Assembly (NCBI GenBank): GCA_944384695.1 | Contig: CALWUQ010000009.1 | Coordinates: forward strand, 1,297-33,296 | DNA: 32,000 nt | Direction of reading: 5' to 3' | From: an uncultured Agathobaculum sp. | GTDB lineage: Bacteria > Bacillota > Clostridia > Oscillospirales > Butyricicoccaceae | Shown here: piece by piece, positions 4,532 to 30,662 of the stretch | How the letters are laid out: the number at the start of each line of letters is the position of its first letter | How positions within the stretch are numbered: position 1 is the first letter of the stretch | Notes under the pieces: generated by a model | Database searches by the model: none | Told to the model about the DNA's origin: nothing | What the model saw: the letters and a program-made list of their open reading frames with translations, nothing else | Translations under genes and position numbers: made by a program

Positions 4532-4579
4532 ACAGCCCAGGTTTGTACGAATGGTACAAACCTGGGCTGTTGGTTTTCT
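4532..4579. terminator. bidirectional rho-independent terminator between convergent genes
   Basis: Perfect 17-bp stem ACAGCCCAGGTTTGTAC / GTACAAACCTGGGCTGT (4532-4548 / 4554-4570) with a 5-nt loop. T4 lies downstream on the plus strand, and an A4 upstream gives a T4 on the minus strand. Confidence 0.8.
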
Positions 4580-4604
4580 TGCAGTATAGGGGATACAGGC
4601 AGCT

Positions 4605-6218: not shown

Positions 6219-6409
6219 GTGCGCAAGCCTCCCTTGTTGACAAAATCGCTTAAAGTAGTATACCCCAAAAAGCGGGAAAAAGCAATCGGCTGAGCGGACA
6301 AGGATACATGCGCTGCATCGGTTGGTGTTTGTTTGTTTTTGACGGAAAAGCGCACAAAGAACAGGCGAACGCATGTACGTTTTTTGGCGTTCCAAACGGC
6401 AAAAATCGG

Positions 6410-6438
6410 TTGAACAACCGGGGCGCGCGCGGTATAAT
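6410..6438 (+). promoter_or_regulatory. sigma-A type promoter for the GNAT-radC-uvrB gene run
   Basis: TTGAAC (6410-6415), 17-nt spacer, TATAAT (6433-6438), about 38 nt upstream of ATG 6476. Confidence 0.55.
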
Positions 6439-6475
6439 GAAAGGACGGAAACTATCGCAACGGGAGAGAAATACT

Positions 6476-7075: not shown

Positions 7076-7096
7076 AACGCAAAGGAGGCCGGGCGC

Positions 7097-7801: not shown

Positions 7802-7804
7802 GAT

Positions 7805-9759
<1,955 letters not shown>

Positions 9760-9763
<4 letters not shown>

Positions 9764-10581: not shown

Positions 10582-10644
10582 ACGCGGCATGCTATGCAGG
10601 ATAGAGAAACCCGAAACAAAAGTGAGGATGAAGCAGAAAAAACT

Positions 10645-13491: not shown

Positions 13492-13512
13492 AGCAGCTTT
13501 TTGCGTGAAAAA

Positions 13513-13545
13513 AGCGGGCATTTCCTTGCGAAATGCCCGCTTTTG
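13513..13545 (+). terminator. rho-independent terminator after uvrA
   Basis: 12-bp stem AGCGGGCATTTC / GAAATGCCCGCT with a 5-nt loop, followed by TTTT. Confidence 0.8.
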
Positions 13546-13563
13546 ACAATTTGCATAAAAATG

Positions 13564-13592
13564 TTGAGCTTTGTGGCGCGTTTTGGTATAAT
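13564..13592 (+). promoter_or_regulatory. promoter for recJ-relA gene run
   Basis: TTGAGC (13564-13569), 17-nt spacer ending in TGG, TATAAT (13587-13592). This gives an extended -10 (TGnTATAAT), 32 nt upstream of ATG 13624. Confidence 0.6.
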
Positions 13593-13623
13593 AATGGTAA
13601 TATAAAATAAATGAGGGAGTCAT

Positions 13624-15699
13624 ATGAAAACAAAGCGATGGGTGATCGCCGACCCCGCTGAGGCGCGCGTGCGCGCCCTGTCGGAGGAGGGCGGGTATGC
13701 CCCGCTGACCGCGGCCGTCCTTGTGGCGCGCGGGATTGATACGCCGCAGGCCGCAGCGGCGTATCTGAGCTGTGATACATCCGGCCTGCACGATCCGTTT
13801 CTGCTGACAGATATGGATAAGGCCGTCGCGGTGATCCGCGGCGCAATCGAGCGCGGCGAGCATATTGTGGTATACGGAGATTATGATGTGGATGGCGTGA
13901 CCGCCACCTGCACGCTGGTGGATTATTTGCGCAGCCGCGGCGCAACATGTGAATATTACATCCCCAACCGCTTGCGCGAGGGCTATGGACTGTCCCGCGC
14001 GGCGATGGAGGCGCTGTATGAGAAGGGCACGCGCCTGCTTATCACGGTCGATTCCGGCATCACCGCCGACGAAGAAATCGCGGTCGCGCGCGAGCTGGGC
14101 ATGCAGGTGGTCATCACCGACCACCATGAGTGCCACGACGCGCTGCCCGCGGCGGATGCGGTGGTCGATTACAAACGGTCGGACTGCACCTATCCGTTTG
14201 ACAGCCTTGCCGGCGTGGGCGTGGCGTTCAAGCTGATTTGCGCGATGGAGGGCAATGCGGAAGCCGTGCTCGAGCGGTATGCCGATTTGGTTGCGCTGGG
14301 TACGGTCGCGGACGTCATGCCGATTACGGGTGAAAACCGCATCATCGTGGCGGCAGGGCTGAAAAAAATGGCCGAGACCGGCAATGTCGGTCTGGAAATG
14401 CTGCTGCGCGAGGCGGGGATGAAGCATAAGCGCCTGACCTCCTCGACCATCAGCTTTGTGCTGGCCCCGCGCATCAACGCGGCGGGCCGTATGGGACGCG
14501 CGGAGCTTGCCGCCGAGTTGTTCCTGACGCACGACCCGGTGCGCGCGCAGTCGCTTGCCGCGCAGCTTTGCGAGCAAAACAAGCTGCGGCAGAATGAGGA
14601 AAACCAGATTTTAACGCAGGCGCTCGCCCGTCTGCGCAAGGAATACAATCCCCTTGAGGATAAAATCATCGTGCTGGCGGAAAAAGGCTGGCATCACGGC
14701 GTGATTGGCATTGTCTGCTCGCGCCTGTGCGACCGGTACGGCTGCCCGGTCGTGCTCATTTCGCTCGATGAGGACGGCACGGGCAAAGGCTCGGGCCGCT
14801 CGGTGGGCGGGTTCAACCTGTTTGATGCGCTGACCTCGTGCGAGGATTTGCTGGAGCGCTACGGCGGGCATGCGCTGGCCGCAGGCCTGACCGTGGACGC
14901 GGACAAGGTGGATACGCTGCGCGAGCGGCTGCGCGCCTATGCCGAGACGCACGTCACCATGGCGGAGCTGGTGCCGCAGCTGCACATCGACTGCATGGTG
15001 CGCCCCGAATGGCTGACCGAGGAGAATATCGAGGCGCTGAGCGTCCTTGAGCCGTACGGCATGCACAACCCGGAGCCGGTGTTCTGCATGAAGGACATGG
15101 TGGCCGAGGATATCACGCCCATTTCGTCCGACCGGCATGTGCGCATGACGCTGGTCAAGGACGGCGTGCGCTTTTCCGCCATCTGGTTCGGCACAGGCGC
15201 GGGCGGACTCGGCTTTGTGGAGGGCAACCGCGTCGATGCCGCCTTTCATCTGGAAATCAATGAGTTTCGCGGCCGCCGCACGGTGCAGCTGACGCTGTGC
15301 GATGCGCAGCTGAGCGATTGTGAGCATCTGGCCGACCAGAAGCTGCTCAATGTGTATAATACCTACATGGCCGACGGGCCGCTGACCGCGCGTGAGGCAC
15401 GCCTGCTGCTGCCCGACCGCAAGGATTTGGTGGCGGTGTGGCGGCATATCGTGTGCCGCGCGGAGGATGGCCGCCTGTCCGTGCCGGACGGTGCGCTGTC
15501 GCGCCGCGTGGCGTGGGAGAGCCGCCGCGATATCAACATCGGCAAGTTATTCGTCTGTCTGGACGTGTTTTCTGAGTCCGGGCTGATTAGTTATCATTTC
15601 AAGGAAGGGATGCTCAACATCCTGCTCAAGCCTTACGAGGGTAAGGCGGATATATCCGGTTCGGTCGTTCTGGCCACGCTGCAAAGCATGGCGGGTTAA
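13624..15699 (+). CDS. recJ: single-stranded-DNA-specific exonuclease RecJ
   Basis: 691 aa with DHH motifs (GDYDVDGVT, TVDSG, ITDHH) and a DHHA1 region (GGH..AAG). GAGGGAG SD upstream. Confidence 0.95.
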   Translation: MKTKRWVIADPAEARVRALSEEGGYAPLTAAVLVARGIDTPQAAAAYLSCDTSGLHDPFLLTDMDKAVAVIRGAIERGEHIVVYGDYDVDGVTATCTLVDYLRSRGATCEYYIPNRLREGYGLSRAAMEALYEKGTRLLITVDSGITADEEIAVARELGMQVVITDHHECHDALPAADAVVDYKRSDCTYPFDSLAGVGVAFKLICAMEGNAEAVLERYADLVALGTVADVMPITGENRIIVAAGLKKMAETGNVGLEMLLREAGMKHKRLTSSTISFVLAPRINAAGRMGRAELAAELFLTHDPVRAQSLAAQLCEQNKLRQNEENQILTQALARLRKEYNPLEDKIIVLAEKGWHHGVIGIVCSRLCDRYGCPVVLISLDEDGTGKGSGRSVGGFNLFDALTSCEDLLERYGGHALAAGLTVDADKVDTLRERLRAYAETHVTMAELVPQLHIDCMVRPEWLTEENIEALSVLEPYGMHNPEPVFCMKDMVAEDITPISSDRHVRMTLVKDGVRFSAIWFGTGAGGLGFVEGNRVDAAFHLEINEFRGRRTVQLTLCDAQLSDCEHLADQKLLNVYNTYMADGPLTAREARLLLPDRKDLVAVWRHIVCRAEDGRLSVPDGALSRRVAWESRRDINIGKLFVCLDVFSESGLISYHFKEGMLNILLKPYEGKADISGSVVLATLQSMAG

Positions 15700-15718
15700 C
15701 GGAATGGGGGAACGAAGT

Positions 15719-17902
15719 ATGCAAAACAAACTGGATTTTTTAATCGAGCGCGTGCAAAAGCAAAATCCGCAGGCCAACATCCGCAAAATCCGTGCGGCTT
15801 ATGAGTGCGCGGCTGCCGCGCATGAGGGACAAAAGCGCAAAAACGGCGAGCCGTATATCATCCATCCGGTTTCAGTCGCGGAAATCGTGGTCGAAATGGG
15901 ATTGGATACCGACTCGATTTGCGCGGCGCTGCTGCATGACTGCATTGAGGACACCAACTTCGGTTACAAGGAAATCGAGAACAAATTCGGCACGCCGGTC
16001 GCGGAGCTGGTGGATGGCGTCACCCGTCTGGGCATGCTGCGCTATTCCAAGGAGCAGGAGCAGTTCGAGGACCTGCGCAAGATGTTCCTTGCCATGGCGA
16101 AGGATATCCGCGTCATCCTCATCAAGCTGGCCGACCGCCTGCACAATGCGCGCACCTTCCAGTACTTGCCCGAGCGCAAGCAGCGCGATAAGGCGCTCGA
16201 GACCATGGAAATCTATGCGCCGATTGCCCATCGACTGGGCATGAGCCGCATCAAGTGGGAGCTGGAGGACCTGTCGCTCAAAATCCTCGACCCCATCGGC
16301 TACAATGAGATTGTCGAGGGCCTGAAAAAGCAGAGCGAACAGCACGAGGAGTTCCTCAAGGGCATTCAGGAGCGCATCAGCGCCAAGCTGGCGGAGGCGC
16401 ATATCAAAAACACGATTTCGGCGCGCGTCAAGCATATCTATTCGATTTACCGCAAGATGTACGCCCAGCATAAGACGATTGATGAGATTTACGACATCTG
16501 CGCGGTGCGCGTAATCGTCGATACGGTGGCGGACTGCTACAACGTACTCGGCTATGTGCACGACCTTTATAAGCCGATTCCGGGACGTTTCAAGGACTAT
16601 ATCTCCACCCCCAAGCCCAATGGCTACCAGTCGCTGCACACGACGGTCATCGGACGCGCGGGTGTGCCGTTTGAAATCCAGATTCGCACCACCGAGATGC
16701 ACAAAATGGCGGAATACGGCGTGGCGGCGCACTGGAAATACAAGCAGGGCCTGACCAAAAAGGGCAATGAGGAAACCTTTGCGTGGATTCGTCAGCTGCT
16801 CGAAGCGCAGCAGGACACTGAGGCCGAGGATTTCATCAAAAACATCAAGGTCGATTTGTTTGCCGACGAGGTGTTCGTCTTTACGCCCAAGGGAGACGTG
16901 GTCAACATGCCCGCGGGCGCGACCCCGATTGACCTTGCCTACGCCATCCACTCGGCGGTCGGCAACCGCATGACCGGCTGCAAAATCAATGGCCGTATCG
17001 CGCCGATTGACAGCCAGCTGAAAAACGGTGATATCGTTGAGATTTTGACCTCCAAGGAAGCGCATGGACCGAGCCGCGACTGGGTCAAAATCGTCAAGAC
17101 CACCGAGGCGCGCAACAAGATTAAACAATGGTTCAAGAAGGAGTGCCGCGAGGAGAATATCGTCAACGGCCGCGAGGACCTTGACCGTGAGCTGCGCGCG
17201 AACCTGTTGTACAACGGCTTTTATGAGAATGAGGAAGTGCGCAAGAACACGCTCAACAAGTTCTCCTTCAATACGCTCGATGAGCTGTACGCCGCCATCG
17301 GTTACGGCGGTATCACGCTGACCAAGGTCATCAACAAGGTCAAGGATGACATTGGTAAGCTGCGCCGCCAGCGCGAGCTGGCCGAGCGCGCGGCCCAGCC
17401 GCAGCCCGAGCAGCAGCCCAAGCGTGTCACCCGCTCCACCACCGGCGTAGTCGTCGAGGGAATCGACAACTGTCTGGTCAAGTTTGCGCGTTGCTGCACG
17501 CCGATTCCGGGCGATGAGATTGTCGGTTTCGTTACACGCGGCTATGGTGTGTCCATCCATCGGCGCGACTGCGTCAACGTTCATATACAGGAGGACCCGG
17601 ACCGCTGGGTGCGCGCTTGGTGGGATGAGGATTTGGCTATCTCCGACCGTTCCAACCGCTTCTCCACCGGTTTGCAGATTTCCACGCGCAGCCGCATCGG
17701 CGTGCTGAGCGATGTGACCGCAGTGCTGGCTGCCTGCAAAATCAATGTGCACGAGATTTCGGCGCGCGACCTCAACGACGGCTATGGCATCATCAACGCG
17801 ATGGTAGACGTTGCGGGGGTGCACCAGCTTGACAACCTCATCAGCCGTTTGCGCTCGATTAAGGGCGTGGTGGACGTGACACGCACGGTGGACACCAACT
17901 GA
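15719..17902 (+). CDS. relA: bifunctional (p)ppGpp synthetase/hydrolase (RelA/SpoT family)
   Basis: HD domain (HPVSVA...LLHD.IED), RelA_SpoT synthetase region (YRSLHT-like YQSLHTTV), TGS and ACT domains. ATG 15719 lies after GGGGGAA; an alternative ATG is at 15704. Confidence 0.95.
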   Translation: MQNKLDFLIERVQKQNPQANIRKIRAAYECAAAAHEGQKRKNGEPYIIHPVSVAEIVVEMGLDTDSICAALLHDCIEDTNFGYKEIENKFGTPVAELVDGVTRLGMLRYSKEQEQFEDLRKMFLAMAKDIRVILIKLADRLHNARTFQYLPERKQRDKALETMEIYAPIAHRLGMSRIKWELEDLSLKILDPIGYNEIVEGLKKQSEQHEEFLKGIQERISAKLAEAHIKNTISARVKHIYSIYRKMYAQHKTIDEIYDICAVRVIVDTVADCYNVLGYVHDLYKPIPGRFKDYISTPKPNGYQSLHTTVIGRAGVPFEIQIRTTEMHKMAEYGVAAHWKYKQGLTKKGNEETFAWIRQLLEAQQDTEAEDFIKNIKVDLFADEVFVFTPKGDVVNMPAGATPIDLAYAIHSAVGNRMTGCKINGRIAPIDSQLKNGDIVEILTSKEAHGPSRDWVKIVKTTEARNKIKQWFKKECREENIVNGREDLDRELRANLLYNGFYENEEVRKNTLNKFSFNTLDELYAAIGYGGITLTKVINKVKDDIGKLRRQRELAERAAQPQPEQQPKRVTRSTTGVVVEGIDNCLVKFARCCTPIPGDEIVGFVTRGYGVSIHRRDCVNVHIQEDPDRWVRAWWDEDLAISDRSNRFSTGLQISTRSRIGVLSDVTAVLAACKINVHEISARDLNDGYGIINAMVDVAGVHQLDNLISRLRSIKGVVDVTRTVDTN

Positions 17903-17941
17903 TGCGGCCGGACAGATACAACAAACAAGTAAGGAACAACC

Positions 17942-18706
17942 ATGCAGAGGAAATATTTCTTTTTTGATATCGACGGCACACTGAGCGTCGGGCAGACTAT
18001 GGTCATGCCGGAGAGCGCGGTGCGCTGTCTGGAACAGCTGCGCGCCAACGGGCATTTCACAGCGCTCGCCACCGGCCGTTTGCAGGCATCGGCGGCGGGG
18101 TTTGCCGCGCAGCACGGTTTCACCGATTTCGTCGCGGACGGCGGGTACAGTTTGACCGTCGGCGGCAAGATTGTGGAGATGAAAAGCCTGCCGGTCGCAG
18201 ACTGCATCGCGCTGATTGACCGGCTGGAAGCAGCGGGCATCCCGTGGGCGGTCACGCCGGTCAATGAGCGCATCTGTGTGACCACTGACAAACGCTATCT
18301 GGACGCTGCGCCGCCCGAATACTTCCCGACGCGGTACGACCCGGCGTTTGATTACCGCACCTTGCAGGTGCTGTATAAGGTCAACATTGTATGCACGGCG
18401 GAACAGGAGGGCAACATGGATTTTGGCACGCTGCCGACCGTGCGGTACAATCGTGATATCCTGCTCGTCGAGCCAACCGAAAAGCAAAACGGCATCCGCC
18501 GTATGGTGGAGCGGCTCGGTATTCCGAATGAGGACGTGGTCATCTTCGGGGACGGCACGAACGACGTTTGCATGTTTGGGCAGGGCTGGTTCTCGGTCGC
18601 CATGGGCAATGCACGCGACGCGCTCAAGCACATGGCGGATTATGTCACCGACCTGGTCGACCGGGACGGCCTATGGAATGCCTGCCGTCATTTCGGTTGG
18701 ATTTAA
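17942..18706 (+). CDS. Cof-type HAD-IIB family hydrolase
   Basis: FFDIDGTL motif I, a cap region, and C-terminal GDG.NDV.MF followed by AMGNA. Confidence 0.85.
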   Translation: MQRKYFFFDIDGTLSVGQTMVMPESAVRCLEQLRANGHFTALATGRLQASAAGFAAQHGFTDFVADGGYSLTVGGKIVEMKSLPVADCIALIDRLEAAGIPWAVTPVNERICVTTDKRYLDAAPPEYFPTRYDPAFDYRTLQVLYKVNIVCTAEQEGNMDFGTLPTVRYNRDILLVEPTEKQNGIRRMVERLGIPNEDVVIFGDGTNDVCMFGQGWFSVAMGNARDALKHMADYVTDLVDRDGLWNACRHFGWI

Positions 18707-18718
18707 GGAGAGACGCAC

Positions 18719-19489
18719 ATGCTGTTTGATACCCATGCGCATTATGATGACGAACGCTTTGACGAGGACCGAGACGCGCTTTTATCCTCCATGCCGGAGC
18801 ACAATGTCGGATTGATTCTCAATCCGGGCTGCGATGTGGAGACTTCGCGCAAGGCGGTAAGCTATGCGCAAAAATACCCGTTTGTATATGCCGCCGTCGG
18901 CATTCATCCGGAAAATATCAACGAAAATTGGAATAATGACCTCGCGGTCATCAAAGAACTGGCCCAGACCGAGCCGCGCGTGCGCGCCATTGGGGAGATT
19001 GGGCTGGACTACTATTGGGAAAAGGACGAGCGCGCCCGCGCGCGGCAGCAGGTCGTGTTCGCGCATCAGATGGAGCTGGCGCGTGAGCTGGACAAGCCGG
19101 TGATTGTGCATGACCGAGACGCGCATGCGGATTGTCTGGAAATTGCGCGGCGGTACGCCGGGACGCAGGGGGTATTCCACTGCTTTGCAGGCAGCGTCGA
19201 GATGGCGCGCGAACTGCTCAAGCTCGGCTATTATCTTTCGTTTACCGGCGTGATTACCTTCAAGAATGCGCGCCGCGCCATTGAGGTCATCCGTGAAGTG
19301 CCGCTTGAACGGCTGATGGTGGAAACCGATTCGCCCTATATGGCGCCCGAGCCGTATCGCGGCCGGCGCAATTCGTCGCTGTATGTCTATCGTATGGCTG
19401 AGACGATTGCGCAAATCAAAGGCGTGGATGTCGGTGAAGTGGAGCGCGTCACCACCGAAAACGGCAAGCGCCTGTTTGACATCCATTGA
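18719..19489 (+). CDS. tatD: TatD family metal-dependent hydrolase
   Basis: MLFDTHAHY, GIHP, EIGLDY, VHDRDAH, FHCF.G and ETDSPYM motifs. Confidence 0.9.
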   Translation: MLFDTHAHYDDERFDEDRDALLSSMPEHNVGLILNPGCDVETSRKAVSYAQKYPFVYAAVGIHPENINENWNNDLAVIKELAQTEPRVRAIGEIGLDYYWEKDERARARQQVVFAHQMELARELDKPVIVHDRDAHADCLEIARRYAGTQGVFHCFAGSVEMARELLKLGYYLSFTGVITFKNARRAIEVIREVPLERLMVETDSPYMAPEPYRGRRNSSLYVYRMAETIAQIKGVDVGEVERVTTENGKRLFDIH

Positions 19490-19506
19490 GCCGGTTTACA
19501 GGGAAT

Positions 19507-19584: not shown

Positions 19585-20628
19585 TCAGGCGTTTTCGGTA
19601 TCTGTGTTGCATTTCGTGTTGCATAATGCTTCAAAATAGCGGTCAATTTGGTCATCAACGGCCTTGCGTTTGTCCGAAAAGGTATGCTGATAGACGGTTT
19701 GCAGCACGGCATTCGTTGACCAGCCGCCGCGCTCCATGGCGTACTTCTCCGGCACGCCCAGCTGCAACATGACCGAGGCGTTTAGATGCCGCAAGTCGTG
19801 AAAGCGCATGTGCGGCAGCCCGGCCTCAGCAATTGCTGCGACAAAGCGGTTATAGATCACCGCGCCGCTTTCCTTGATGATTGGTTCGTTCGGTTTGCCC
19901 TTGCCGATCAGCTGCCGCAGATAGGGCGGCAGGCGCAGCCGTCGCGTGCTGGTGAAAGTCTTGGTCTGCTCGCGCACTTCCTCATGATCGCCGACATGCA
20001 GCACCGTGCGCCGAATCGTCAGAATGTCGCCGCTGATGTCGCCATAGCGCAGGCCGCGCACCTCGCTCATACGCAGCGATAGCCAGAGTGCCAGCAGGGC
20101 GGGCAGCTCGACCGACGTGCCCTGCACGGCATGGATCACCTGCTCGGGTGTAGGCAGGGTACGCAGCCGCCGCTTTTTGGCGGGCAGCGTGACGCGCAGT
20201 CGAAGGTCGGGCGCAAACATGGCGCACGCGGCTGAAATCAGGCCGTAGGCGTTGGCGACAGTTTTCGGCGAGCATTCTACCGCCTCGCGGTTAATTGCGC
20301 TTTGTACGGCCGCTGAGTCCAGCGCAGCGAGAGACAGCTTTTGCAGCGCCCCAAACCGATGCTTGGCAATCGACCGATAGGCCTGTACGGTCGTGGGGGA
20401 AAGCACATGTTCCTTGGAGTCGATGTACTGCTCGATGGCCTGCGCAAGCGTCAGCTCCGCAGCAGTGCCGCCTTTGCGTTTACGGGTGAGGTATTCGCTG
20501 GCCAGAAACTCCGCAGTGCGTTTGTCCGGATCAGTAAAGGATTTGTATTGCCGCTTGCCGGAGGCATCTTTGCCGGTATAGACCAGTACGCGGTAGTTGC
20601 CTGATGGTAATTTCTTTGCTGTTGCCAT
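19585..20628 (-). CDS. site-specific tyrosine recombinase (phage integrase family)
   Basis: 347 aa from ATG 20628, with GGAGG 8 nt upstream. It has an N-terminal arm-binding-like AKKLPSGNYRVLVY..KD..GKR, a core-binding region, and a catalytic region with R (MSEVRGL), HDLRH and the terminal ...YQHT tyrosine. The track ORF starts at 20694, inside a terminator hairpin. Confidence 0.9.
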   Translation of the reverse strand: MATAKKLPSGNYRVLVYTGKDASGKRQYKSFTDPDKRTAEFLASEYLTRKRKGGTAAELTLAQAIEQYIDSKEHVLSPTTVQAYRSIAKHRFGALQKLSLAALDSAAVQSAINREAVECSPKTVANAYGLISAACAMFAPDLRLRVTLPAKKRRLRTLPTPEQVIHAVQGTSVELPALLALWLSLRMSEVRGLRYGDISGDILTIRRTVLHVGDHEEVREQTKTFTSTRRLRLPPYLRQLIGKGKPNEPIIKESGAVIYNRFVAAIAEAGLPHMRFHDLRHLNASVMLQLGVPEKYAMERGGWSTNAVLQTVYQHTFSDKRKAVDDQIDRYFEALCNTKCNTDTENA

Positions 20629-20672
20629 TGCGAAAACCTCCAAAAAGGAACATTTGTTCGGTTTGAGTGGGT

Positions 20673-20717
20673 GAAAAAATGCAGACCACAACAAAACAGT
20701 GTTCGGTTGTGGTCTGC
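20673..20717 (-). terminator. rho-independent terminator (minus strand) between the HTH genes and integrase
   Basis: 12-bp perfect stem GCAGACCACAAC / GTTGTGGTCTGC (20681-20692 / 20706-20717). On the minus strand it is followed by ATTTTTTC. Confidence 0.7.
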
Positions 20718-20726
20718 GGGGTTATT

Positions 20727-20939
20727 TTAGCGCTCAGCTTCATCGGGGATATATTCCATAATATCTCCAGGCTGACAATTTAGAAGCTTACAGAGACGCT
20801 CTATGATTTCGGTAGTAACATATTGATTTTTGATTAGACGATCAACCGAATTTGCGTGAATGCCATTAAGCCGCAACCAATGCTTGTTGACACCTTGTTG
20901 CTCCATCAAGGAGAAAAGCTTTTTGTATGTAATTGGCAT
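20727..20939 (-). CDS. small Cro/C1-type HTH protein (HTH_26-like), paralog 1
   Basis: 70 aa from ATG 20939, after AAGGAGA. The C-terminus ...RLCKLLNCQPGDIMEYIPDE is typical of HTH_26 proteins. The track start at 20945 is a TTG. Confidence 0.75.
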   Translation of the reverse strand: MPITYKKLFSLMEQQGVNKHWLRLNGIHANSVDRLIKNQYVTTEIIERLCKLLNCQPGDIMEYIPDEAER

Positions 20940-20969
20940 GAGCAAGTCTCCTTTATATCTGAAAATGTG

Positions 20970-21197
20970 TTAGTTGTCCTCATCATCAGGAATATATTCC
21001 ATTATGTCTCCGGGTTGACATTGGAAAAGTGCACATAACCTGTTGATGGTCTCGGTGTCAACACGCTGAGTTTTTGATAATTTATCGGATAATACTTTAT
21101 CAAGTATATTCGGATTAAAACCCATTTTGCGCAAATCGTATTTTTTTAGTCCTAATCGCTCCATTTGCTGGGCAACTTTTTTCATAGTAATTGCCAT
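20970..21197 (-). CDS. small Cro/C1-type HTH protein (HTH_26-like), paralog 2
   Basis: 75 aa. The C-terminus ...RLCALFQCQPGDIMEYIPDD is nearly identical to the downstream paralog. It lies 24 nt from paralog 1, so they are probably co-transcribed. Confidence 0.75.
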   Translation of the reverse strand: MAITMKKVAQQMERLGLKKYDLRKMGFNPNILDKVLSDKLSKTQRVDTETINRLCALFQCQPGDIMEYIPDDEDN

Positions 21198-21229
21198 GAA
21201 GAAGTACCTCTATAATTATAGCATAAAAG

Positions 21230-21319
21230 TGTACGAACAATAGTACAAAATATCAACAAAATAATGTACTCAAGTTCGTACAATATCACGATTTACAATA
21301 TTGTACTAACTCTGATACA
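21230..21319. promoter_or_regulatory. three operator-like 18-bp palindromes TGTAC-N8-GTACA
   Basis: O1 at 21230-21247 is TGTACgaacaataGTACA. O2 at 21265-21282 is TGTACtcaagttcGTACA. O3 at 21302-21319 is TGTACtaactctgATACA (one mismatch). Centres are 35 and 37 bp apart. A minus-strand extended -10 (TGCTATAAT, revcomp of 21215-21223) sits just before the paralog-2 start. Confidence 0.55.
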
Positions 21320-21321
21320 AT
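21292..21321 (+). promoter_or_regulatory. candidate plus-strand promoter overlapping O3
   Basis: TTTACA (21292-21297), 18-nt spacer, TGATACAAT, which is an extended -10 with TACAAT at 21316-21321. It points into a 190-nt ORF-free stretch and then the 3' end of the PH-SHOCT gene. Confidence 0.4.
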
Positions 21322-21508
21322 ACACATGGTGATAGCAAGTCACTGTGTGTTCCTTAATAACTCAACAGCAAGGGTGCGCTCCTATGAAGCCAGCGCCGGG
21401 TAGTTGCAGACCGTTAGGTATCCCATAGCGAAGAGTAACAGCAAATGTACATGGCTCAAGTGTGCAAAATGTAGCGCCAAGGAAAGATTAGTTAATAGAT
21501 TCGGTTGC

Positions 21509-22072
21509 TTACAGTCCTAAAATCTGTTTTTTCTTTGCGTCAAATTCTTCTTGAGTTAGCACACCAGCATCCAAGAGTTCTTTTAGCTCATAAAGCAGAC
21601 TAATTTGGTCATCAACTTCCTTTTGCGGGTTAGTTGACTGTGCCTTAGGCGTAGGCTGCTTGAGGTCTACTAAAAGATTATGCAGACGTTCACTAACATT
21701 TTTCGCCTGACTCTTCTCAAGAGCAACTTTAAACTGTTCCCTGATAGTGTCAACTGTGATAGTACCAAGAGCAAGCCCTGAAGAAAATGTAATATCATTG
21801 ATCTGATCGAGCGCAACACTTATCAGGTTTTCTCCAATGAATTTCTTTTGGGCAAGAATAAAACGGCGATTTGTAACAGCATAAGCATAGTTGCCATCGT
21901 GTTTTGACGCGGATTGGTAATTATGTAGACCTTCAAATACGAACAGTACTTGTTCGTCTGGCTGCAATGCGTTTTGGATCAGTGTAAAGTGCTTCATATC
22001 CCAACTTTTCATTGATCCTTGTCCAAGATGATTTGCAACGCAAAACTGAATCATTTCTTCTGCGGTTCGCAT
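21509..22072 (-). CDS. bacterial PH-domain (YokE-like) protein with C-terminal SHOCT domain
   Basis: 187 aa. ...YAYAVTNRRFILAQKKFIGENLISVALDQINDITFSSGLALGTITVDT... matches the YokE-like bPH pattern. The C-terminal LLYELKELLDAGVLTQEEFDAKKKQILG is a SHOCT motif. Confidence 0.8.
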   Translation of the reverse strand: MRTAEEMIQFCVANHLGQGSMKSWDMKHFTLIQNALQPDEQVLFVFEGLHNYQSASKHDGNYAYAVTNRRFILAQKKFIGENLISVALDQINDITFSSGLALGTITVDTIREQFKVALEKSQAKNVSERLHNLLVDLKQPTPKAQSTNPQKEVDDQISLLYELKELLDAGVLTQEEFDAKKKQILGL

Positions 22073-22091
22073 CTTAAATCCCCCTTAAAGA

Positions 22092-22119
22092 TTGACAAAA
22101 TTAGCCAATCTTGTATAAT
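22092..22119 (+). promoter_or_regulatory. near-consensus sigma-A promoter
   Basis: TTGACA (22092-22097), 16-nt spacer, TATAAT (22114-22119). It is divergent from the PH-SHOCT start at 22072. Confidence 0.6.
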
Positions 22120-22125
22120 GGTATT

Positions 22126-22191
22126 GGAGGACTGTGAAACACTCCATCTTTGCCCGTTCCGGTGGTAGCGCACCGGGGCGGGCGCTTTTTT
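22126..22191 (+). ncRNA. candidate ~66-nt small RNA (or leader/attenuator) defined by promoter plus intrinsic terminator
   Basis: 5' hairpin TGGAG(22125-22129)/CTCCA(22142-22146). Terminator hairpin GCCCGUUCCGGUG-GUAGCG-CACCGGGGCGGGC at 22152-22183 has 13 pairs including two G-U, followed by GC and T6 (22186-22191). No SD or start codon lies inside. Confidence 0.45.
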
Positions 22192-22372
22192 ATGGTGTCC
22201 AATTTGAACACCGATATTTTTGATGATATGCAATATATTGATTTACCCTTGCCAAAATCCAAGATGTGGTGTATTATTGAAAATACAAACACTTGTTCGA
22301 TTTTGGGAGGGGTTAGGATGACAGAAAGACAAAAGCGAATGAAAGAACTGCTGATTCAATCAGACGCGGAAA

Positions 22373-22723
22373 TCACTGACCAGATTCTTTCTGCTGTTTT
22401 AGCCAAATTCGGTACTCCGCCTGTTGAATCAAATCGTCCTGATCCTGCTCAGGAAGCTTGTCCATCATTTCCAAAATCTTAATCTGCTTTTCCGTTAACC
22501 CGCTTATATCTTCGGATGTGAGCGGGTTTTTTATATATGTGTTGCCAATCAGGTAATCGGTTGAAACATTAAACAAATTCGCTATTTTACGCAATGTTTT
22601 CCTGTCTGGTTCGAATGTTCCATTTTCCCATCCAGAAACAGTAGACTGCCCAACATTAAGAATTTTGGCGAGTTCAGATTGTTTCATTCCTGCTTCTTTA
22701 CGCAATTGCTTTATGATACGCAC
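22373..22723 (-). CDS. XRE family (cI-like) HTH repressor
   Basis: 116 aa from GTG 22723, after AAGGGGG. It contains the classic HTH_3 segment MKQSELAKILNVGQSTVSGWENG...L.KIA.LF.VS.DYL. Confidence 0.85.
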   Translation of the reverse strand: MRIIKQLRKEAGMKQSELAKILNVGQSTVSGWENGTFEPDRKTLRKIANLFNVSTDYLIGNTYIKNPLTSEDISGLTEKQIKILEMMDKLPEQDQDDLIQQAEYRIWLKQQKESGQ

Positions 22724-22737
22724 ATACTCGCCCCCTT

Positions 22738-22869
22738 ACTGATATTAGTTTAACTGATATTAGAAGGCGTCGCAATGAAATATCTGAAAATATGAAAAAT
22801 TACATTGACATATCAGAAAATATCAGTTATATTAAATATCAGAAATACTAATATATCATAAAATATCAG
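22738..22869. promoter_or_regulatory. operator array of short ATATCAG/CTGATAT repeats in a divergent promoter region
   Basis: ACTGATATTAG occurs twice (22738-22748, 22753-22763). ATATCAG occurs four times in the opposite orientation (22810-22816, 22820-22826, 22836-22842, 22863-22869), with degenerate copies at 22780-22786 and 22853-22859. A minus-strand promoter candidate is TTGCGA-N17-TAAACT (revcomp of 22770-22775 and 22747-22752). Confidence 0.55.
22805..22833 (+). promoter_or_regulatory. rightward (early, PR-like) promoter
   Basis: TTGACA (22805-22810), 17-nt spacer containing two ATATCAG repeats, TATATT (22828-22833). Confidence 0.55.
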
Positions 22870-22887
22870 AAAGGGGGTGAGAGGGTA

Positions 22888-22925
22888 CGAAATTAAAGAA
22901 ACCCCACTTGCGGCTACAAGTGAGG
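22888..22925 (-). terminator. rho-independent terminator (minus strand) after the 97-aa ORF
   Basis: The minus strand reads CCUCACUUG-UAGCCG-CAAGUGGGG, 9 pairs with one G-U that would be a C-A mismatch on the plus strand. TTTCTTTAATTT follows. Confidence 0.6.
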
Positions 22926-22947
22926 TTAAACCAGACTTTCGCCGAAT

Positions 22948-23241
22948 TTACGGAGTGCATGCCATGCATCGCTGCATGGTAGGGCGAGCGTTCACCTTCT
23001 TAACAAAAGATTCAGATGTGCGATTATGTGTAATTGAACCTTCAGGTGTGGCCAGACCGAACGGGCTCAGTTTCTTCAACTGAGCCAGCGCGATCAGTCC
23101 GGAGGATGGCTTGACGAAACTAATTGCACCATCAGCGCTTGTAAATGCGCTGGTAACAGGGCTTGTCAGGCTACTCTTCACTACGGTCGAACGCAGCGAA
23201 GTGATAGCACCGGACATGATATCATTCTTCGTCGCGTTCAT
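22948..23241 (-). CDS. hypothetical Ser/Thr-rich 97-aa protein with C-terminal CxxC
   Basis: ATG 23241 is preceded by GGAGAAAT, and a strand-specific terminator lies 23 nt after the stop. A candidate promoter is TTGCGT-N17-TATACT (revcomp of 23431-23436 and 23408-23413). No family recognised. Confidence 0.45.
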   Translation of the reverse strand: MNATKNDIMSGAITSLRSTVVKSSLTSPVTSAFTSADGAISFVKPSSGLIALAQLKKLSPFGLATPEGSITHNRTSESFVKKVNARPTMQRCMACTP

Positions 23242-23473
23242 ATTTCTCCAAATTTGTTACCCATAAGTGGGGCTGCGTCATTTCTGCGCAGCTCTCACGG
23301 TCGCCCGTGAGTTCAGACTGTGCCTTCAACCACGAGGGTTGCTCCGTGTCCAGTCGTTACACCTTCCGCATCAGCGGCTTGGCTCGGCGTTATCTGGTTG
23401 TGATGTCAGTATACAACACGAACAGGGAAAACGCAAGCAACGTTCGGATATGGGAGAGAGGAGGTGAGAGGGG

Positions 23474-25892: not shown

Positions 25893-26621
25893 ATGCCAAG
25901 GCCGAGCTATTTTTCAATTCTGACAGCAGACGTGCGCTATGACACAGGTCTGTCTGACTTTGCAAAGCTGCTGTACAGCGATATTACCGCGCTGTGCAAC
26001 AAGAAGGGCTACTGTGACGCGACCAACGACTATTTCGCCACGCAGTTTGGCAAATCCAAGCGCACGATCAGTGCGACCGTGGGCGCACTCGCAGACGCGG
26101 GTTATATCTGCATCGAAGTCGAGCGGGACGCAAGCAACGCGGTCGTGGCACGCAAAATCTGGGTGCAGGCAAACGCCCGTGCCGCTGCGGAAAAGGTGCA
26201 GACCCCTATAGAAGAAAATTTCCATAGGTATAGAGAAAAACTTCCTGACCCTATGGAAGAAAACTTCTACCAATATAATAGGAAGAATAATACAAGTAAG
26301 AATAATACCCCTATAGTCCCCAAAGGGGACGACGGGCTGTTCGATGAATTCTGGGCGGCTTACCCGAAGCACGTTGCAAAGCAACCGGCGCGACGGGCAT
26401 TCGATCGGCTGAAGCCTGACAGGGCGCTGCTGGACAAGATGCTGGCGGCCTTGCAGTGGCAGAAGCAGACCGAAAGCTGGCAACGGGACAGTGGCCGCTA
26501 TGTACCAAACCCCGCGACATGGCTCAATGCCCGCCGCTGGGAGGACGAGCCGGAGGGCAGTCCCACGCCGCCCAAACCGTCCAAGCCGACCAAAGAGGAA
26601 CGGAGGTATGAGCATTGGTAA
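25893..26621 (+). CDS. phage replication initiator / replisome-organizer-like protein
   Basis: ATG 25893 lies after GGGAGG. The N-terminal winged-HTH-like region is SYFSILTADVRYD..LS..AKLLYSDITALCNKKGYC.ATNDYFA..FG.S.RTIS..V..L. The C-terminal FDEFWAAYPK...YVPNPATWLNARRWEDE block is common in phage replication proteins. Confidence 0.75.
   Translation: MPRPSYFSILTADVRYDTGLSDFAKLLYSDITALCNKKGYCDATNDYFATQFGKSKRTISATVGALADAGYICIEVERDASNAVVARKIWVQANARAAAEKVQTPIEENFHRYREKLPDPMEENFYQYNRKNNTSKNNTPIVPKGDDGLFDEFWAAYPKHVAKQPARRAFDRLKPDRALLDKMLAALQWQKQTESWQRDSGRYVPNPATWLNARRWEDEPEGSPTPPKPSKPTKEERRYEHW
26203..26316. repeat. iteron-like direct repeats in an AT-rich patch inside the replication gene (candidate origin)
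   Basis: CCTATAGAAGAAAATTTC (26205-26222) and CCTATGGAAGAAAACTTC (26250-26267) share 16 of 18 positions. CCCCTATAG occurs at 26203-26211 and again at 26308-26316. AAGAATAATA occurs twice (26283-26292, 26298-26307). There is an imperfect inverted repeat CCTATAGAA/TTCCATAGG. Confidence 0.5.
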
Positions 26622-27376
26622 AAGCGACACTCGACGCAGAGTACAGCGTGATCGGCTGCCTACTGGTTGACCCGTCGATCGCGGGCGAAATGCTGTACCG
26701 CACGCGGCCGGAGGACTTCACCGTTCCCGAGCTGCGCACGGTGTACAATGCCGCGGTCAAGCTGTTTGGTGCCGGGCGGCCGGTGGACGCGGTCACGATC
26801 CGCGGCGTGTGTGGCGCGGAGTATAACGACCTGCTGATGCAGTGCATGGATGTCACACCGACCTCGTTCGGCTGGCGCACCTACATATCCGCCATGCAGG
26901 AGCAGACACGGGTCACCCGGCTGCGGGCGCTGGCTGCCGAGCTTGCCGAGGTGCGCACAAGCGATAAGGCGCGCGATCTGCTCGGACAGGCAGGCGAGAT
27001 TTTGAGCGAAAAGAACCGCACGCAGGTCGTGACCATGCAGCAGGCGCTCGTGCAGTTTTTCAGCGAGCAAGGCGAAAAACGCCGCTTTCTCAGTTGGGGC
27101 TTTGATAAGCTCGACCGACGGCTGTATACAGACTACGGCGATTTTGTGATAGTTGCGGGACGTCCGTCCGCGGGCAAGACTGCGCTTGCCTTGCAGATGG
27201 CGTCGCACATGGGGCGGCAGGACAAGGTCGGCTTTTACAGCCTTGAGACCAGCACTGCCAAGCTGACCAACAGATTGGTTGCGAGCCGCTGTATCATCGA
27301 CTTCGGCCATATCAACCGCCGCGAGATGACGCCCGAGGAGTGGGAGCGCGCAGCTAAGTGGAAAAAAAAGTCTTAG
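26615..27376 (+). CDS. DnaB-like replicative helicase, N-terminal portion (through Walker A), ends at TAG just after an A8 run
   Basis: TTG 26615 lies 8 nt after GGAGG. It has a DnaB N-domain-like LDAEYSVIGCLLVDPS and the Walker A VAGRPSAGKTALAL. The zero frame reads TGG AAA AAA AAG TCT TAG. Confidence 0.8.
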   Translation: MVKATLDAEYSVIGCLLVDPSIAGEMLYRTRPEDFTVPELRTVYNAAVKLFGAGRPVDAVTIRGVCGAEYNDLLMQCMDVTPTSFGWRTYISAMQEQTRVTRLRALAAELAEVRTSDKARDLLGQAGEILSEKNRTQVVTMQQALVQFFSEQGEKRRFLSWGFDKLDRRLYTDYGDFVIVAGRPSAGKTALALQMASHMGRQDKVGFYSLETSTAKLTNRLVASRCIIDFGHINRREMTPEEWERAAKWKKKS

Positions 27377-27885
27377 AAAGCAAGCTGGAGCTGATTCCCG
27401 CGTCCGGTTGGGGCGTACAGGACATTCTGGCGACCGCGCTGGCGCGGCAGCACCGGGTCGTGTTTGTCGACTATTTGCAGCTCATTCGTGCGGCCGGGCG
27501 CAACCGTACCGAACAGGTGACCAACATTTCGCTTGCGCTGCACGAGATGGCGCAGGCACACGGCATTCTGGTCGTCGCACTCAGTCAACTTAATCGCGCC
27601 AGCACGGATCGCGCGGACGCAACGCCTACGCTGGCTGATCTGCGCGAGTCAGGCCAGATCGAGCAGGATGCGGACGCGGTGCTTGCACTGTACATCGACC
27701 CGGATGAGGATGCGCCCATGGACGACCGCAAGCTGCGGGTGCTCAAGAACAAAGAGGGACGGCTGGGCGATTTCTCACTCGCGTTCGACGGCTCGACACA
27801 GAGTTTTGCGGAATACATGGACGGGCAGCTTGCCGCCGCTCGGCAGATCAAGAAAATGGGGAAGAAAACCGACGCATCCGCGTAA
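27358..27885 (+). CDS. DnaB-like replicative helicase, C-terminal portion (Walker B onward), in the -1 frame
   Basis: VVFVDYLQLI (Walker B), ALSQLNR, LADLRESGQIEQDAD and the RecA-like C-terminus. It continues ORF 26615..27376 after a -1 shift in the A run. Confidence 0.8.
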   Translation: MEKKVLESKLELIPASGWGVQDILATALARQHRVVFVDYLQLIRAAGRNRTEQVTNISLALHEMAQAHGILVVALSQLNRASTDRADATPTLADLRESGQIEQDADAVLALYIDPDEDAPMDDRKLRVLKNKEGRLGDFSLAFDGSTQSFAEYMDGQLAAARQIKKMGKKTDASA

Positions 27886-27904: not shown

Positions 27905-28168
27905 ATGAGCAAGATGAAAAAGATTCGTCTCTGCCTTGAGGTGCAAGGCCTCGGGCAGGACGATTTGGGCACGCCATGCCCTGCGGGTGTCTGTCTGACG
28001 CTGGGCGACGAGGACGCCGAGGAAATGACTGGCGCGGAGTACGAAACATTTTTGCAGCAGGTCAAGATCGAAGAAGTGTTGCGGCTGGTCTGCCTTGATA
28101 AGCTGTACACCCCGGCAGACTGCCGCCTGATGATGCCGGACGAGTACGACCGGAAATATGGGGAGTGA
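27905..28168 (+). CDS. hypothetical 87-aa protein
   Basis: ATG 27905 lies after ACGGAGGTAC. It is the in-frame tail of track ORF 27533..28168, whose upstream part overlaps the helicase. Confidence 0.5.
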   Translation: MSKMKKIRLCLEVQGLGQDDLGTPCPAGVCLTLGDEDAEEMTGAEYETFLQQVKIEEVLRLVCLDKLYTPADCRLMMPDEYDRKYGE

Positions 28169-28174
28169 GAGCAA

Positions 28175-28975
28175 ATGAAAACCATCAGCATTGTGAATTT
28201 GAAAGGCGGCGTCGGCAAGACGGTGACGGCGGTCAACCTTGCGGCGATCCTCGCCACCGAGTACAATGCGCGCGTGTTGCTGATCGACGCTGACCATCAG
28301 GGCAACGCCAGCCGATTCTACCGCATCCCGGCCGAGCCGGGCACGCTCGCCGACCTGTTTGAGGGCATGTGCCTGTGCTATGCCGACCTTGTCCAGCACA
28401 CGATTTACCGCGGGCTGGATGTCATTCCGGCGGACATGTCGCTCGCGGCGCTCGACCTTGACGGCAGTCTGCCGGGGGATGTAAACGGTGGCACGCCGCG
28501 TGACCGTGCGCTGCGCGTGCTGACCGACCTGCGTGACGCGGTCATCGAGGACGACGCCTATGATTATCTCGTCATCGACTGCCCGCCCGCGTTTTCGGTC
28601 GCGTCCATCAGCGCGGTCGCGGCGTCGAGCGACATCGTTATCCCAGTCAAGCCGGGTGCGTTCGAGATCGACGGCATGGCCGAGCTGCTGCGTCAGATTG
28701 ACGGCATCCGGCGCGTTAACGGCGCGGTGCAGGTGGGCGTGCTGCTGACCATGTGGCACAACGCGGATGTGGTCCGGCAGGGCGAGGACTGGCTGCGGGC
28801 AAATTGCCCTGTGCCGGTATTCGAGACCCGCATCCGGCGCACGGATAAGGTGGACGAAAGCACCTTTGCGCGCGAGCCGGTCTGCCAGTGGTCACCGACC
28901 TCGGCCGCTGCGCGCGATTACCGCGCGTGGGTGCGCGAGTATCTGGGAGGTGGCGCAGATGGCGCGGAAACTTGA
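28175..28975 (+). CDS. parA: ParA/Soj-type partition ATPase
   Basis: MKTISIVNLKGGVGKTVTAVNLAAILA is a deviant Walker A. LIDADHQGN and DYLVIDCPP are also present. Confidence 0.9.
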   Translation: MKTISIVNLKGGVGKTVTAVNLAAILATEYNARVLLIDADHQGNASRFYRIPAEPGTLADLFEGMCLCYADLVQHTIYRGLDVIPADMSLAALDLDGSLPGDVNGGTPRDRALRVLTDLRDAVIEDDAYDYLVIDCPPAFSVASISAVAASSDIVIPVKPGAFEIDGMAELLRQIDGIRRVNGAVQVGVLLTMWHNADVVRQGEDWLRANCPVPVFETRIRRTDKVDESTFAREPVCQWSPTSAAARDYRAWVREYLGGGADGAET

Positions 28976-30662
28976 TATTGGGGCGATGCTCGGCGACACG
29001 GTGTCCAAATTGAACACCATGCAGGTGCGTGAGATCGCGCTAAGTCAGCTCGAGGAAAACCCGGACAACTCCTATGCGCAGACCGGCATCGATGAGCTGG
29101 CCGAGTCGATTGAGGTAGTCGGTTTGCAGCAGCCGCTGGTGGTTGTGCCGGTGGAGGACGGCCGCTTTCGCATTCTTGCAGGTCACCGGCGGCGCAATGC
29201 GCTGGAAAAGCTGGAGCGCAAAACCGCGCCGTGCGTCGTGCTGGATGCCGACCTCGACCCGTCGCTGCGCGTGCTGATCCTGCACTGGACGAACACCATG
29301 GCACGAGGCGGCGCTGGCCTGACGGCTGAAAACACCTTTGCTGCCGCCAAGGAGATTAAGGAGGCGCTGGTCGACCTCAAGCAGCGCGGCGTGCTCGAGC
29401 TGCCGGGCAAGCTGCGCACTTATGTCGCGGACGTGCTCAAGGTGAGCGAAGCCGCAATCGCGCGGGCGGACGCGATAAATGCGCACCTATCGAAGGCGTG
29501 GAAGGGCGACTACAAAAAAGCCATCATCAACGATTCGGTCGCCTATGAGCTGAGCCAGTGCGATGACGAACTGCAGCGCGAGCTGCACGACCTGTACAAG
29601 GGGGAGATGTGGGGGTTAGACGCCAAAAAAGTCAAAGCACACAAAAAGGCCGCGGCTGCGGGCTTTGCGCCGTTGCAATGCCCAGCGGCGCAGTACGGCA
29701 TCCAGCCGTGTGTCGGCACGGACAAGCGCGCCGCGGCGGTCAAGCGCGGCGAATGCCTCGGCTGCTGCCACGACTGCGACAAGGCGGACGGCTGCGAGTG
29801 GGTGTGCGGCCCAGTCAGTAAAGCGAATCACGCCCGCATTCTGGCTGAGGAGCAAGAGAAAACACGCAAGCAGGAAAACGAGGCGTTCGAGGCATCGCCA
29901 CTTGGCAAGCTGCGGCGCCACATGCGAGAGACACTTGCAGTGTATGGCGTACATAGCAATGCCGATTTACCGGGCAGTTTGTATGGCTATGGCGCATGGA
30001 TTTGGACGAACAACCCGGCTGCGACCAGCCCGACCGGCATACAATCTATGCAGCGTATTGCAGATCATATTGGCATCGACCTGCAGGAGCTGCTGTTCGG
30101 CAACCCGGAGGGCGCGCCGCTGCGCCAGCTGGACGAGCAGATGCAGCAGGCGACCGCCGAGCCCATGCTCGCAGCACCATCCATCCCGGAAGTGCCCGAT
30201 ACCATCATCACCGCAGGCAAGGAAACGTGCCTGCCATGCGCGGCGTGGTTTTCGCCTGATGTGCTGCCGCCGGATGGTGCGCGCATCATTGCGCAGGATC
30301 GGGACGGGTTTGTCGATGAAGGGAAGTTCCTTGGCGGAGGACTAGATTCGGTCATCATGGAGTGGGATGAGGTTGTCCGCTGGACTCTCCACCCGGACGA
30401 CGAGGCGTACACCGAGCCGGTGCAGCAGGCGGTGCAGGAGCCGCAGCCCGCGCCGGTCTGGCACCCGTACCCGGTCGAGGAGCCGGACGAGGGACAGACA
30501 GTGCTGACGCTCACACACAACAACGAATTAAACGTAAATACTTATGACGTATATGTCTATCGCGAGGGAGCATGGTATCTTCCCGATATACCGCTCGATG
30601 TTGAGACGGAGGTGGATGTTAGCTGGTGGTCGGCAGAGCTGCCGCCGGAGGTAGTCAAATGA
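28959..30662 (+). CDS. ParB N-terminal-domain protein with Cys-cluster and long C-terminal extension
   Basis: ATG 28959 lies after GGGAGGTGG and overlaps the parA end. The ParB/Srx region is SQLEENPDN...ELAESIEVVGLQQPLVV...ILAGHRRRNA. There are 8 Cys in 46 residues (~29676-29812). The C-terminus has two W..P...G..V......W-type segments reminiscent of DUF551. Confidence 0.8.
   Translation: MARKLDIGAMLGDTVSKLNTMQVREIALSQLEENPDNSYAQTGIDELAESIEVVGLQQPLVVVPVEDGRFRILAGHRRRNALEKLERKTAPCVVLDADLDPSLRVLILHWTNTMARGGAGLTAENTFAAAKEIKEALVDLKQRGVLELPGKLRTYVADVLKVSEAAIARADAINAHLSKAWKGDYKKAIINDSVAYELSQCDDELQRELHDLYKGEMWGLDAKKVKAHKKAAAAGFAPLQCPAAQYGIQPCVGTDKRAAAVKRGECLGCCHDCDKADGCEWVCGPVSKANHARILAEEQEKTRKQENEAFEASPLGKLRRHMRETLAVYGVHSNADLPGSLYGYGAWIWTNNPAATSPTGIQSMQRIADHIGIDLQELLFGNPEGAPLRQLDEQMQQATAEPMLAAPSIPEVPDTIITAGKETCLPCAAWFSPDVLPPDGARIIAQDRDGFVDEGKFLGGGLDSVIMEWDEVVRWTLHPDDEAYTEPVQQAVQEPQPAPVWHPYPVEEPDEGQTVLTLTHNNELNVNTYDVYVYREGAWYLPDIPLDVETEVDVSWWSAELPPEVVK

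Follow-up and report, generated by a model that had tools for sequence, protein, structure and literature searches.

A DnaB-like helicase gene that breaks exactly at a slippery heptamer of the E. coli dnaX type raises the question whether the break serves as a recoding signal or is an ordinary lesion. Such a gene is found in the window, as we call the whole stretch of 32,000 nucleotides of uncultured Agathobaculum sp. DNA that was analysed. An initial annotation had placed the break inside a run of eight adenines (A8, 27362-27369) and had derived from it a zero-frame product of 253 amino acids (aa) and a -1 product of 423 aa. The break and both products were reproduced from the sequence and from the list of open reading frames (ORFs). 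The features around the site are as follows.

26615-27885, plus strand: DnaB-like helicase gene, whole span, interrupted at the A8 run
26615..27376, plus strand: helicase 5' fragment, 253 aa, WP_297274526.1 (ORF list, Pfam PF00772 and PF03796, exact database match, motifs)
27335..27346, plus strand: GAGGAG and GGGAG, part of Glu-Glu-Trp-Glu codons conserved in all intact relatives
27358..27885, plus strand, -1 frame: helicase 3' fragment, WP_297274527.1 (ORF list, DnaB_C match across the junction, alignment to Geobacillus DnaB)
27362..27369, plus strand: A8 run, the lesion site, 8 nt as against 9 nt in relatives outside the lineage
27374..27376, plus strand: zero-frame TAG stop made by the frame change; its bases belong to TTA GAA (Leu-Glu) codons in intact relatives

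The helicase is not encoded as one uninterrupted frame, the zero frame being closed by the stop at 27374-27376 and the remainder lying in the -1 frame. From a TTG start at 26615, which has GGAGG 5 nt upstream, the 253-aa ORF runs into the site as TGG AAA AAA AAG TCT TAG. The heptamer A_AAA_AAG occupies 27364-27370 in the correct zero-frame phase of the X_XXY_YYZ pattern. Joining the frames by a -1 step after AAG 27368-27370 yields a protein of 423 aa, which also results when one A is added (A9). Runs of A6 or A12 restore the frame as well and A7 fails; the earlier statement that A7 or A10 would be in frame was an arithmetic slip. The 5' fragment holds the DnaB N-domain, the linker, Walker A and motif H1a; the 3' fragment holds Walker B, H3, H4 and the C-terminal part of the RecA-like domain. 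The mechanical ORF start of the latter is GTG 27358, and helicase homology resumes at 27370. RefSeq annotates the two fragments as separate proteins of uncultured Agathobaculum sp. The A8 run is the longest homopolymer in the window, followed by three 7-mers. The window has a G+C content of 57%, at which we estimate that about 0.3 A8 runs are expected in 64 kb of two-strand sequence, so that a single one is not improbable.

After repair of the frame the protein is a member of the DnaB family, not a curated equivalog. It matches the Pfam DnaB N-domain PF00772 with 49.8 bits (cut-off 23) over residues 5-90, and DnaB_C PF03796 with 191.3 bits (cut-off 27) in one stretch, in which residues 160-399 correspond to profile positions 3-254 of 255; this match is complete only in the repaired frame. 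Both NCBIfam equivalog models scored below their cut-offs (TIGR00665, 233.1 vs 385.25 bits; TIGR03600, phage_DnaB, 213.7 vs 498.65 bits). Walker A was located at residues 182-189, H1a at 209-213, Walker B at 284-290, H3 at 324-328 and H4 at 344-354. The closest known systems among phage and mobile-element replicative helicases of the DnaB family are SPP1 G40P (PDB 3BGW) and Geobacillus DnaB (2R6A, 2VYE). The repaired protein resembles them from end to end, with N-domain, linker, Walker A, H1a, Walker B, H3 and H4, and Geobacillus DnaB (2VYE, 2R6A) aligned with it over chain residues 13-438. The Agathobaculum prophage gene differs from them in being interrupted and in its NCBIfam scores below cut-off.

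The break falls at residues 251-253, between H1a and Walker B. Judged from these positions, the 253-aa product is predicted to end within the RecA-like ATPase core rather than at a boundary between domains. The earlier reading that the short product carries the N-domain and Walker A only was right in this respect, as Walker B, H3 and H4 all lie past the break. On its motif content, a fragment lacking these three motifs cannot be a helicase.

The gene belongs to an integrated prophage, because an integrase gene adjoins the chromosome and a near-identical contig (locus L009) runs into TerL and portal genes. Positions 1-19,500 of the window are chromosomal and also hold a HAD hydrolase gene. The genes that matter here are listed below.

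7805-9763: uvrB, end-to-end profile match
10594-13491: uvrA, end-to-end profile match
13624-15699: RecJ-like gene, contains an A7 run
15704-17902: relA/spoT, end-to-end profile match
18719-19489: tatD-family gene, end-to-end profile match
19585..20628, minus strand: tyrosine integrase, left end of the prophage, adjoining the tatD-family gene downstream (PHROG integrase, gene calls on L009)
25893..26621, plus strand: HTH_36 protein (DnaD-like or replication-initiator-type), 242 aa (Pfam; gene calls on L009, L001, L008 and L018)
28175-28975, plus strand: ParA, intact (Pfam, gene calls on L009)
28959-30662, plus strand: ParB-like gene, intact (Pfam, gene calls on L009)

After the integrase gene the order is HTH regulators, the HTH_36 gene, whose stop overlaps the helicase start, then the helicase, an 87-aa ORF, ParA and the ParB-like gene. 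L009 continues into DNA methylase, HNH, TerL and portal genes. A tRNA scan of the window found none, and the prophage does not sit at a tRNA gene there.

The initial annotation had proposed to compare orthologs, and this was done. A search with the fused protein returned 7,630 relatives. Among the 120 best cluster representatives, 114 reach a length of at least 400 aa; identity goes up to 97-98%, and one representative comprises 74 member sequences. The region of the break reads KWKK(D/E)V/L in these proteins; the motif was located in 45 close relatives, 41 of which have D or E at codon 252, and KWKKK was absent among the relatives examined. DNA was fetched for 19 related loci (ENA, Logan, NCBI, GTDB and JGI assemblies). 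Seventeen of them span the site, 16 from outside the lineage of the window and the remaining one being L009. All 16 outside loci have 9 nt between TGG and the next codon and an intact frame; the site reads AAAAAGGAA, AAAAAGGAT/C, AAAAAAGAT or AAAAATGAA, with A-runs only 5-6 long and Asp or Glu at codon 252 in every case. The variants are distributed as follows.

AAAAAGGAA: L001, L008/L011, L014, L018
AAAAAGGAT: L010, L013, L015, L016
AAAAAGGAC: L019
AAAAAAGAT: L002-L007
AAAAATGAA: L012

The heptamer and the two-frame organisation were found in none of the 16 outside loci, all of which are single ORFs, and no A7, A9 or any tract longer than 6 was present in a relative outside the lineage. The A run and the frame break are therefore not conserved beyond one lineage: the orthologs are uninterrupted and lack the slippery run, which the initial annotation itself had named as evidence against its proposal. 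L009 is the only other locus with A8; over their overlap of 15,386 bases, it and the window differ at 2 positions. In about 15 billion proteins searched, the exact fragments were present on just two contigs, of 40,463 and 40,419 bp, and the 90% clusters of the 5' and 3' fragments had 5 and 2 members, respectively. A search of IMG/VR viral contigs with the site pattern gave no match, and blastn of the gene against the phage GenBank collection gave just three short, distant matches.

Short homologs were considered as candidates for further split alleles. Six of them were mapped onto the fused protein, and none begins or stops at residues 251-253. Four candidates were rejected upon closer inspection, three of them (P0054, P0122 and P0123) after tracing to their contigs, which left out P0081, P0084, P0085, P0086 and P0092: P0054 runs off the contig end, P0123 diverges just before the contig end, P0126 reads through the site intact, and P0122 ends in AGATCGGAAGAGCGTCGTGTAG, which we take to be Illumina adapter sequence. 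No further split member of the helicase family was found among the about 15 billion proteins and the six short relatives mapped.

If the site were a programmed one, it would be kept by selection and yield both the 253-aa and the 423-aa product, either by a dnaX-like -1 ribosomal frameshift on A_AAA_AAG or by RNA polymerase slippage from A8 to A9. The heptamer indeed stands in the right frame with a zero-frame stop two codons later, and if stimulated, A_AAA_AAG ranks with the heptamers most prone to shift in E. coli (PMC4066793). For some IS elements, productive slippage is assumed to occur on A8 runs (PMC1088944), and the 3' half of the gene is under apparent purifying selection. Set against this are the restriction of motif and break to one lineage and the missing stimulators. 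GAGGAG (27335-27340) ends 23 nt and GGGAG (27342-27346) 17 nt before the heptamer, the distances already given by the initial annotation; no SD-like stimulator was found at about 10 nt upstream, and the two elements are ordinary conserved codons. RNA folds of four windows (44-121 nt around and downstream of the site) were no better than those of dinucleotide shuffles (z +0.57, -0.92, +0.15 and -0.05) and revealed no downstream stem-loop or pseudoknot, in line with the earlier failure to see a convincing hairpin. Rfam gave no match around the site at E <= 1, a dnaX element included, and none over the whole window at the gathering threshold. Bare heptamers shift at no more than about ten times a background of 0.055% in E. 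coli reporters (PMC4066793), and the short product would be cut within the RecA core. For transcriptional slippage, runs are typically at least 9 long and kept across homologs (PMC1088944), whereas this run has 8 nt and occurs in one lineage. Selection against A/T runs is evident at about 9 nt in many bacterial genomes (PMC1088944). A literature search, including PMC3711429, turned up no programmed frameshift described for a DnaB-type helicase.

The likeness to E. coli dnaX (tau/gamma) consists in the identical A_AAA_AAG, the codon phase, the nearby zero-frame stop and the replication gene. At the dnaX site, an SD-like element precedes the heptamer by about 10 nt and a stem-loop follows it within a few nt (PMC4344849). 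In dnaX the zero frame gives the full-length protein and the shift the short one; in the Agathobaculum helicase this is reversed, the shift being needed for the long product. Moreover, the dnaX site is conserved among enterobacteria and gamma is a modular truncation, whereas the Agathobaculum site is absent from all relatives outside the lineage and its 253-aa product ends within a fold. Thermus thermophilus dnaX with A9 slippage and two-ORF dnaX genes with A7-A10 are similar in that an A-run parts two frames in a replication gene (PMC1088944, PMC3711429), but the Thermus-type runs are conserved across species and the Agathobaculum run is unique to one lineage. We therefore consider recoding under selection highly improbable, and the dnaX-type programmed frameshift with two isoforms that had been suggested is unsupported: the site is confined to the lineage, has no stimulators and cuts inside the RecA fold. 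What we see is an ordinary frame break, not programmed recoding. Of the alternatives that the initial annotation listed besides recoding, an inactivating prophage mutation and a sequencing error are those favoured by the evidence.

Regarding the age of the break, the window differs from intact relatives in 5-6% of nucleotides and 2-3% of residues. Relative to L014, the codon differences divide into 33 silent and 7 replacement ones before the break and, in the helicase frame, 25 silent and 2 replacement ones after it. Substitutions private to the window, counted against five intact genes, amount to 10 silent and 2 replacement changes upstream and to 5 silent and 1 replacement change downstream (helicase frame), the single downstream replacement being located in the C-terminal tail. 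Read in the helicase frame, most of the downstream private changes are silent, and so the 3' half has not drifted. Such an undrifted 3' half would be compatible with a very recent mutation, with an assembly error and with continued function alike.

The break probably arose recently and within a single Agathobaculum lineage, by deletion of one base from the helicase gene of its integrated prophage. In the alignment, one column within codon 252 is missing in the window. The ancestral site would have been TGG AAA AAR GAA GTC TTA GAA, encoding Trp-Lys-Lys-Glu-Val-Leu-Glu. Starting from an AAA AAA GAA state, removal of the Glu codon's G would join A6 and A2 into A8, and this one deletion would give TGGAAAAAAAAGTC, so that A8 run, A_AAA_AAG phase and TAG (from TTA GAA) would all come into being at once. 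The frame would be shifted, the TAG exposed two codons on, and standard decoding would end in the 253-aa fragment. The resemblance to a dnaX site would then be a by-product of a deletion in a Lys-Lys-Glu codon string and not a selected signal. AAA stands at codon 251 of L002-L007 and GAA at codon 252 of L001, L008, L014 and L018; because both codon states occur separately among the relatives, an AAA AAA GAA ancestor is plausible. Exactly AAAAAAGAA occurs in no relative among the loci compared, so that two steps are needed from any observed allele, and one silent change plus one deletion may well account for the site. An alternative route would lead over an in-frame A9 (Glu to Lys) that later contracted; it needs an allele that is absent from all relatives.

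The evidence below leads us to infer a deletion of the genomic DNA itself, not one introduced by the assembly. The main rival, which is less likely, is a sequencing or assembly error, whereby the real genome would have 9 nt (A9 or AAAAAAGAA) and an intact 423-aa gene from which the consensus lost one base. A single-base lesion in or next to a homopolymer is the classic type of error, the assembly is metagenome-derived, the break is a singleton among a very large intact family, and the downstream half is without any decay. Large surveys attribute most singleton frameshifts in genes whose homologs are intact to sequencing errors or indel mutations (PMC3711429). The two assemblies, which differ at two other positions, nevertheless agree on A8; yet the two A8 contigs are of nearly equal size and may come from one sample or share reads, in which case they would not be independent. 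No other long gene in the 32 kb is broken, and as uvrB, uvrA, relA/spoT and tatD give full-profile matches and recJ carries an A7 run, the assembly is not generally indel-prone. The scaffold naming suggests a short-read assembly, for which consensus indels at A8 would be uncommon. As no relative has A9, a simple homopolymer under-call needs an additional, unseen E-to-K allele. Taken together, we judge an error to be unlikely, though it has to be kept in mind.

Phase variation, in which replication slippage would toggle the helicase between A8 (off) and A9 (on), has in its favour that homopolymer tracts are hypermutable (PMC1088944) and that A9 restores the frame, with Lys for Glu or Asp at codon 252. 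However, the lineage shows A8 in both of its contigs, tracts of A7, A9 or any length above 6 and KWKKK alleles are missing among the relatives examined, and contingency loci are mostly surface and restriction-modification genes and not replication genes (PMC3711429), which makes a phase-variable tract very unlikely. Even less can be said for a functional two-piece helicase, in which a 175-aa C-terminal piece re-initiated at GTG 27358 would reassemble non-covalently with the N-terminal piece. The GTG overlaps the end of the first ORF and has GGGAG 11 nt upstream, and RefSeq holds the pieces as separate proteins, but the split would lie within the RecA beta-sheet core between P-loop and Walker B, other split family members were not found, and the GTG and GGGAG are ordinary Lys-Trp and Trp-Glu codons in all intact relatives. 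We rejected this reading as extremely improbable, on account of the split inside the RecA core and of a start and SD that are ordinary conserved codons.

The recent deletion that we favour would leave the prophage impaired in autonomous replication, unless the lesion suppresses itself. Conceivably, a real deletion has accidentally made a working recoding site that supplies a few percent of full-length helicase, through A8 to A9 polymerase slippage and/or a -1 slip on A_AAA_AAG before the stop. The nearest functional analogy would be an indel in, or creating, an A-run, for which slippage recovers part of the full-length product. About a tenth of full-length product is obtained from a human apoB deletion allele that has A8 (PMC1088944), and about 20% from the A11 run of Citrobacter rodentium tssM1 (PMC4256274). 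These cases share with the Agathobaculum site a frame-breaking lesion in or creating an A-run, on which an A added by RNA polymerase can restore the frame. They differ in that rescue was measured for apoB A8 and tssM1 A11, whereas the Agathobaculum site is known from sequence alone; further, the tssM1 run is 11 As long and the gene needs both products, while the run here has 8 As. Nothing indicates selection for such a leak, and we regard a rescue of this kind as quite improbable. If true, it could keep the prophage replication-competent and would explain the undecayed 3' half.

As to what the finding means, the two RefSeq proteins named 'DnaB-like helicase C-terminal domain-containing' should be one pseudogene. 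The event is one more lineage-specific frameshift in a prophage gene and has little biological weight. It does call for caution, as a single deletion in a Lys-Lys-Glu codon string is enough to produce, by chance, a slippery heptamer with a stop behind it, and conservation among orthologs is the test that separates such a chance heptamer from true recoding. If low-level rescue does occur, the site would be a small example of an indel creating its own suppressor site, a snapshot of a recoding site or 'pseudo-pseudogene' born from an ordinary indel.

The chromosomal part of the window and the integrated prophage meet directly behind a tatD-family gene, as the following features (window positions) show.

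1-19500: chromosomal part (first 19.5 kb), with uvrB, uvrA, recJ-like, relA/spoT, HAD hydrolase and tatD-family genes
19585-20628: prophage integrase gene, immediately downstream of tatD
21509-22072, minus strand: bPH_3/SHOCT-domain gene
26615-27885, plus strand: DnaB-like helicase gene, as two open reading frames
27905-30662: 87-aa ORF and parAB genes, of which ParA and a long ParB-like protein (567 aa) occupy 28175-30662

No tRNA gene was found across the whole window, and the attachment site used here is therefore not a tRNA. Just within the prophage, G+C content is 38-43% over 2.5 kb (20500-23000), the value for the window as a whole being 57%. This stretch contains the bPH_3/SHOCT-domain gene as well as small HTH genes and may have been acquired separately, as a moron or lysogeny cassette. 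Gene calls, taken from the near-identical ENA scaffold L009, leave approximately 880 nt (roughly 22600-23470) without a called gene. Over 15.4 kb, window and L009 differ at just two positions, 19747 (C/G, within the integrase gene) and 28343 (A/C, within parA), which may reflect micro-heterogeneity between strains or differing consensus calls in two assemblies made from one community.

RefSeq carries a separate protein record for each helicase half (WP_297274526.1 and WP_297274527.1), titled in both cases 'DnaB-like helicase C-terminal domain-containing protein', and no single frameshifted pseudogene is listed. Among the relatives, the short database protein P0122 was considered as a truncated allele ending few codons from the site at which the frame is broken in the window. 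It is encoded by L020, a public metagenome contig of 849 nt, whose terminal positions 828-849 read AGATCGGAAGAGCGTCGTGTAG, an Illumina adapter sequence. P0122 thus carries an adapter-encoded tail (…EWERDRKSVV) mimicking a truncation, and was rejected as a true one. In the related locus L016 (955-2084), the helicase gene aligns to the window over 955-1385 and again over 1486-2084, the roughly 100 nt in between being unmatched, and the called gene comprises just 186 aa from the 3' part. At the site of the frame break L016 is intact (AAAAAGGAT), and the unmatched segment probably reflects a gap in the scaffold or a local misassembly, not a lesion.

A module of replication initiator plus helicase is common to the window and the related loci L001 (2327-4060) and L018 (2250-7150), with 94-95% nucleotide identity. 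Downstream of it, L001 and L018 differ entirely from window 27905-30662; in their contigs the module is followed by genes for a 741-aa protein without domain hit, HicA/HicB and a CHAP-domain protein. The C-terminal tail of the helicase switches too, reading …KKMEDKRHEQMSLQKAE (429 aa) in the L001 and L018 contigs as compared to …KKMGKKTDASA (423 aa) in the window. The different downstream genes and the switched tail suggest that the 3' end of the helicase gene is a recombination junction. In the ParB-like protein of the window, an N-terminal ParB_N is the sole recognised domain, approximately 400 C-terminal residues being without Pfam match. The presence of an integrase and partition genes in one prophage is reminiscent of elements that are also able to persist as plasmids.
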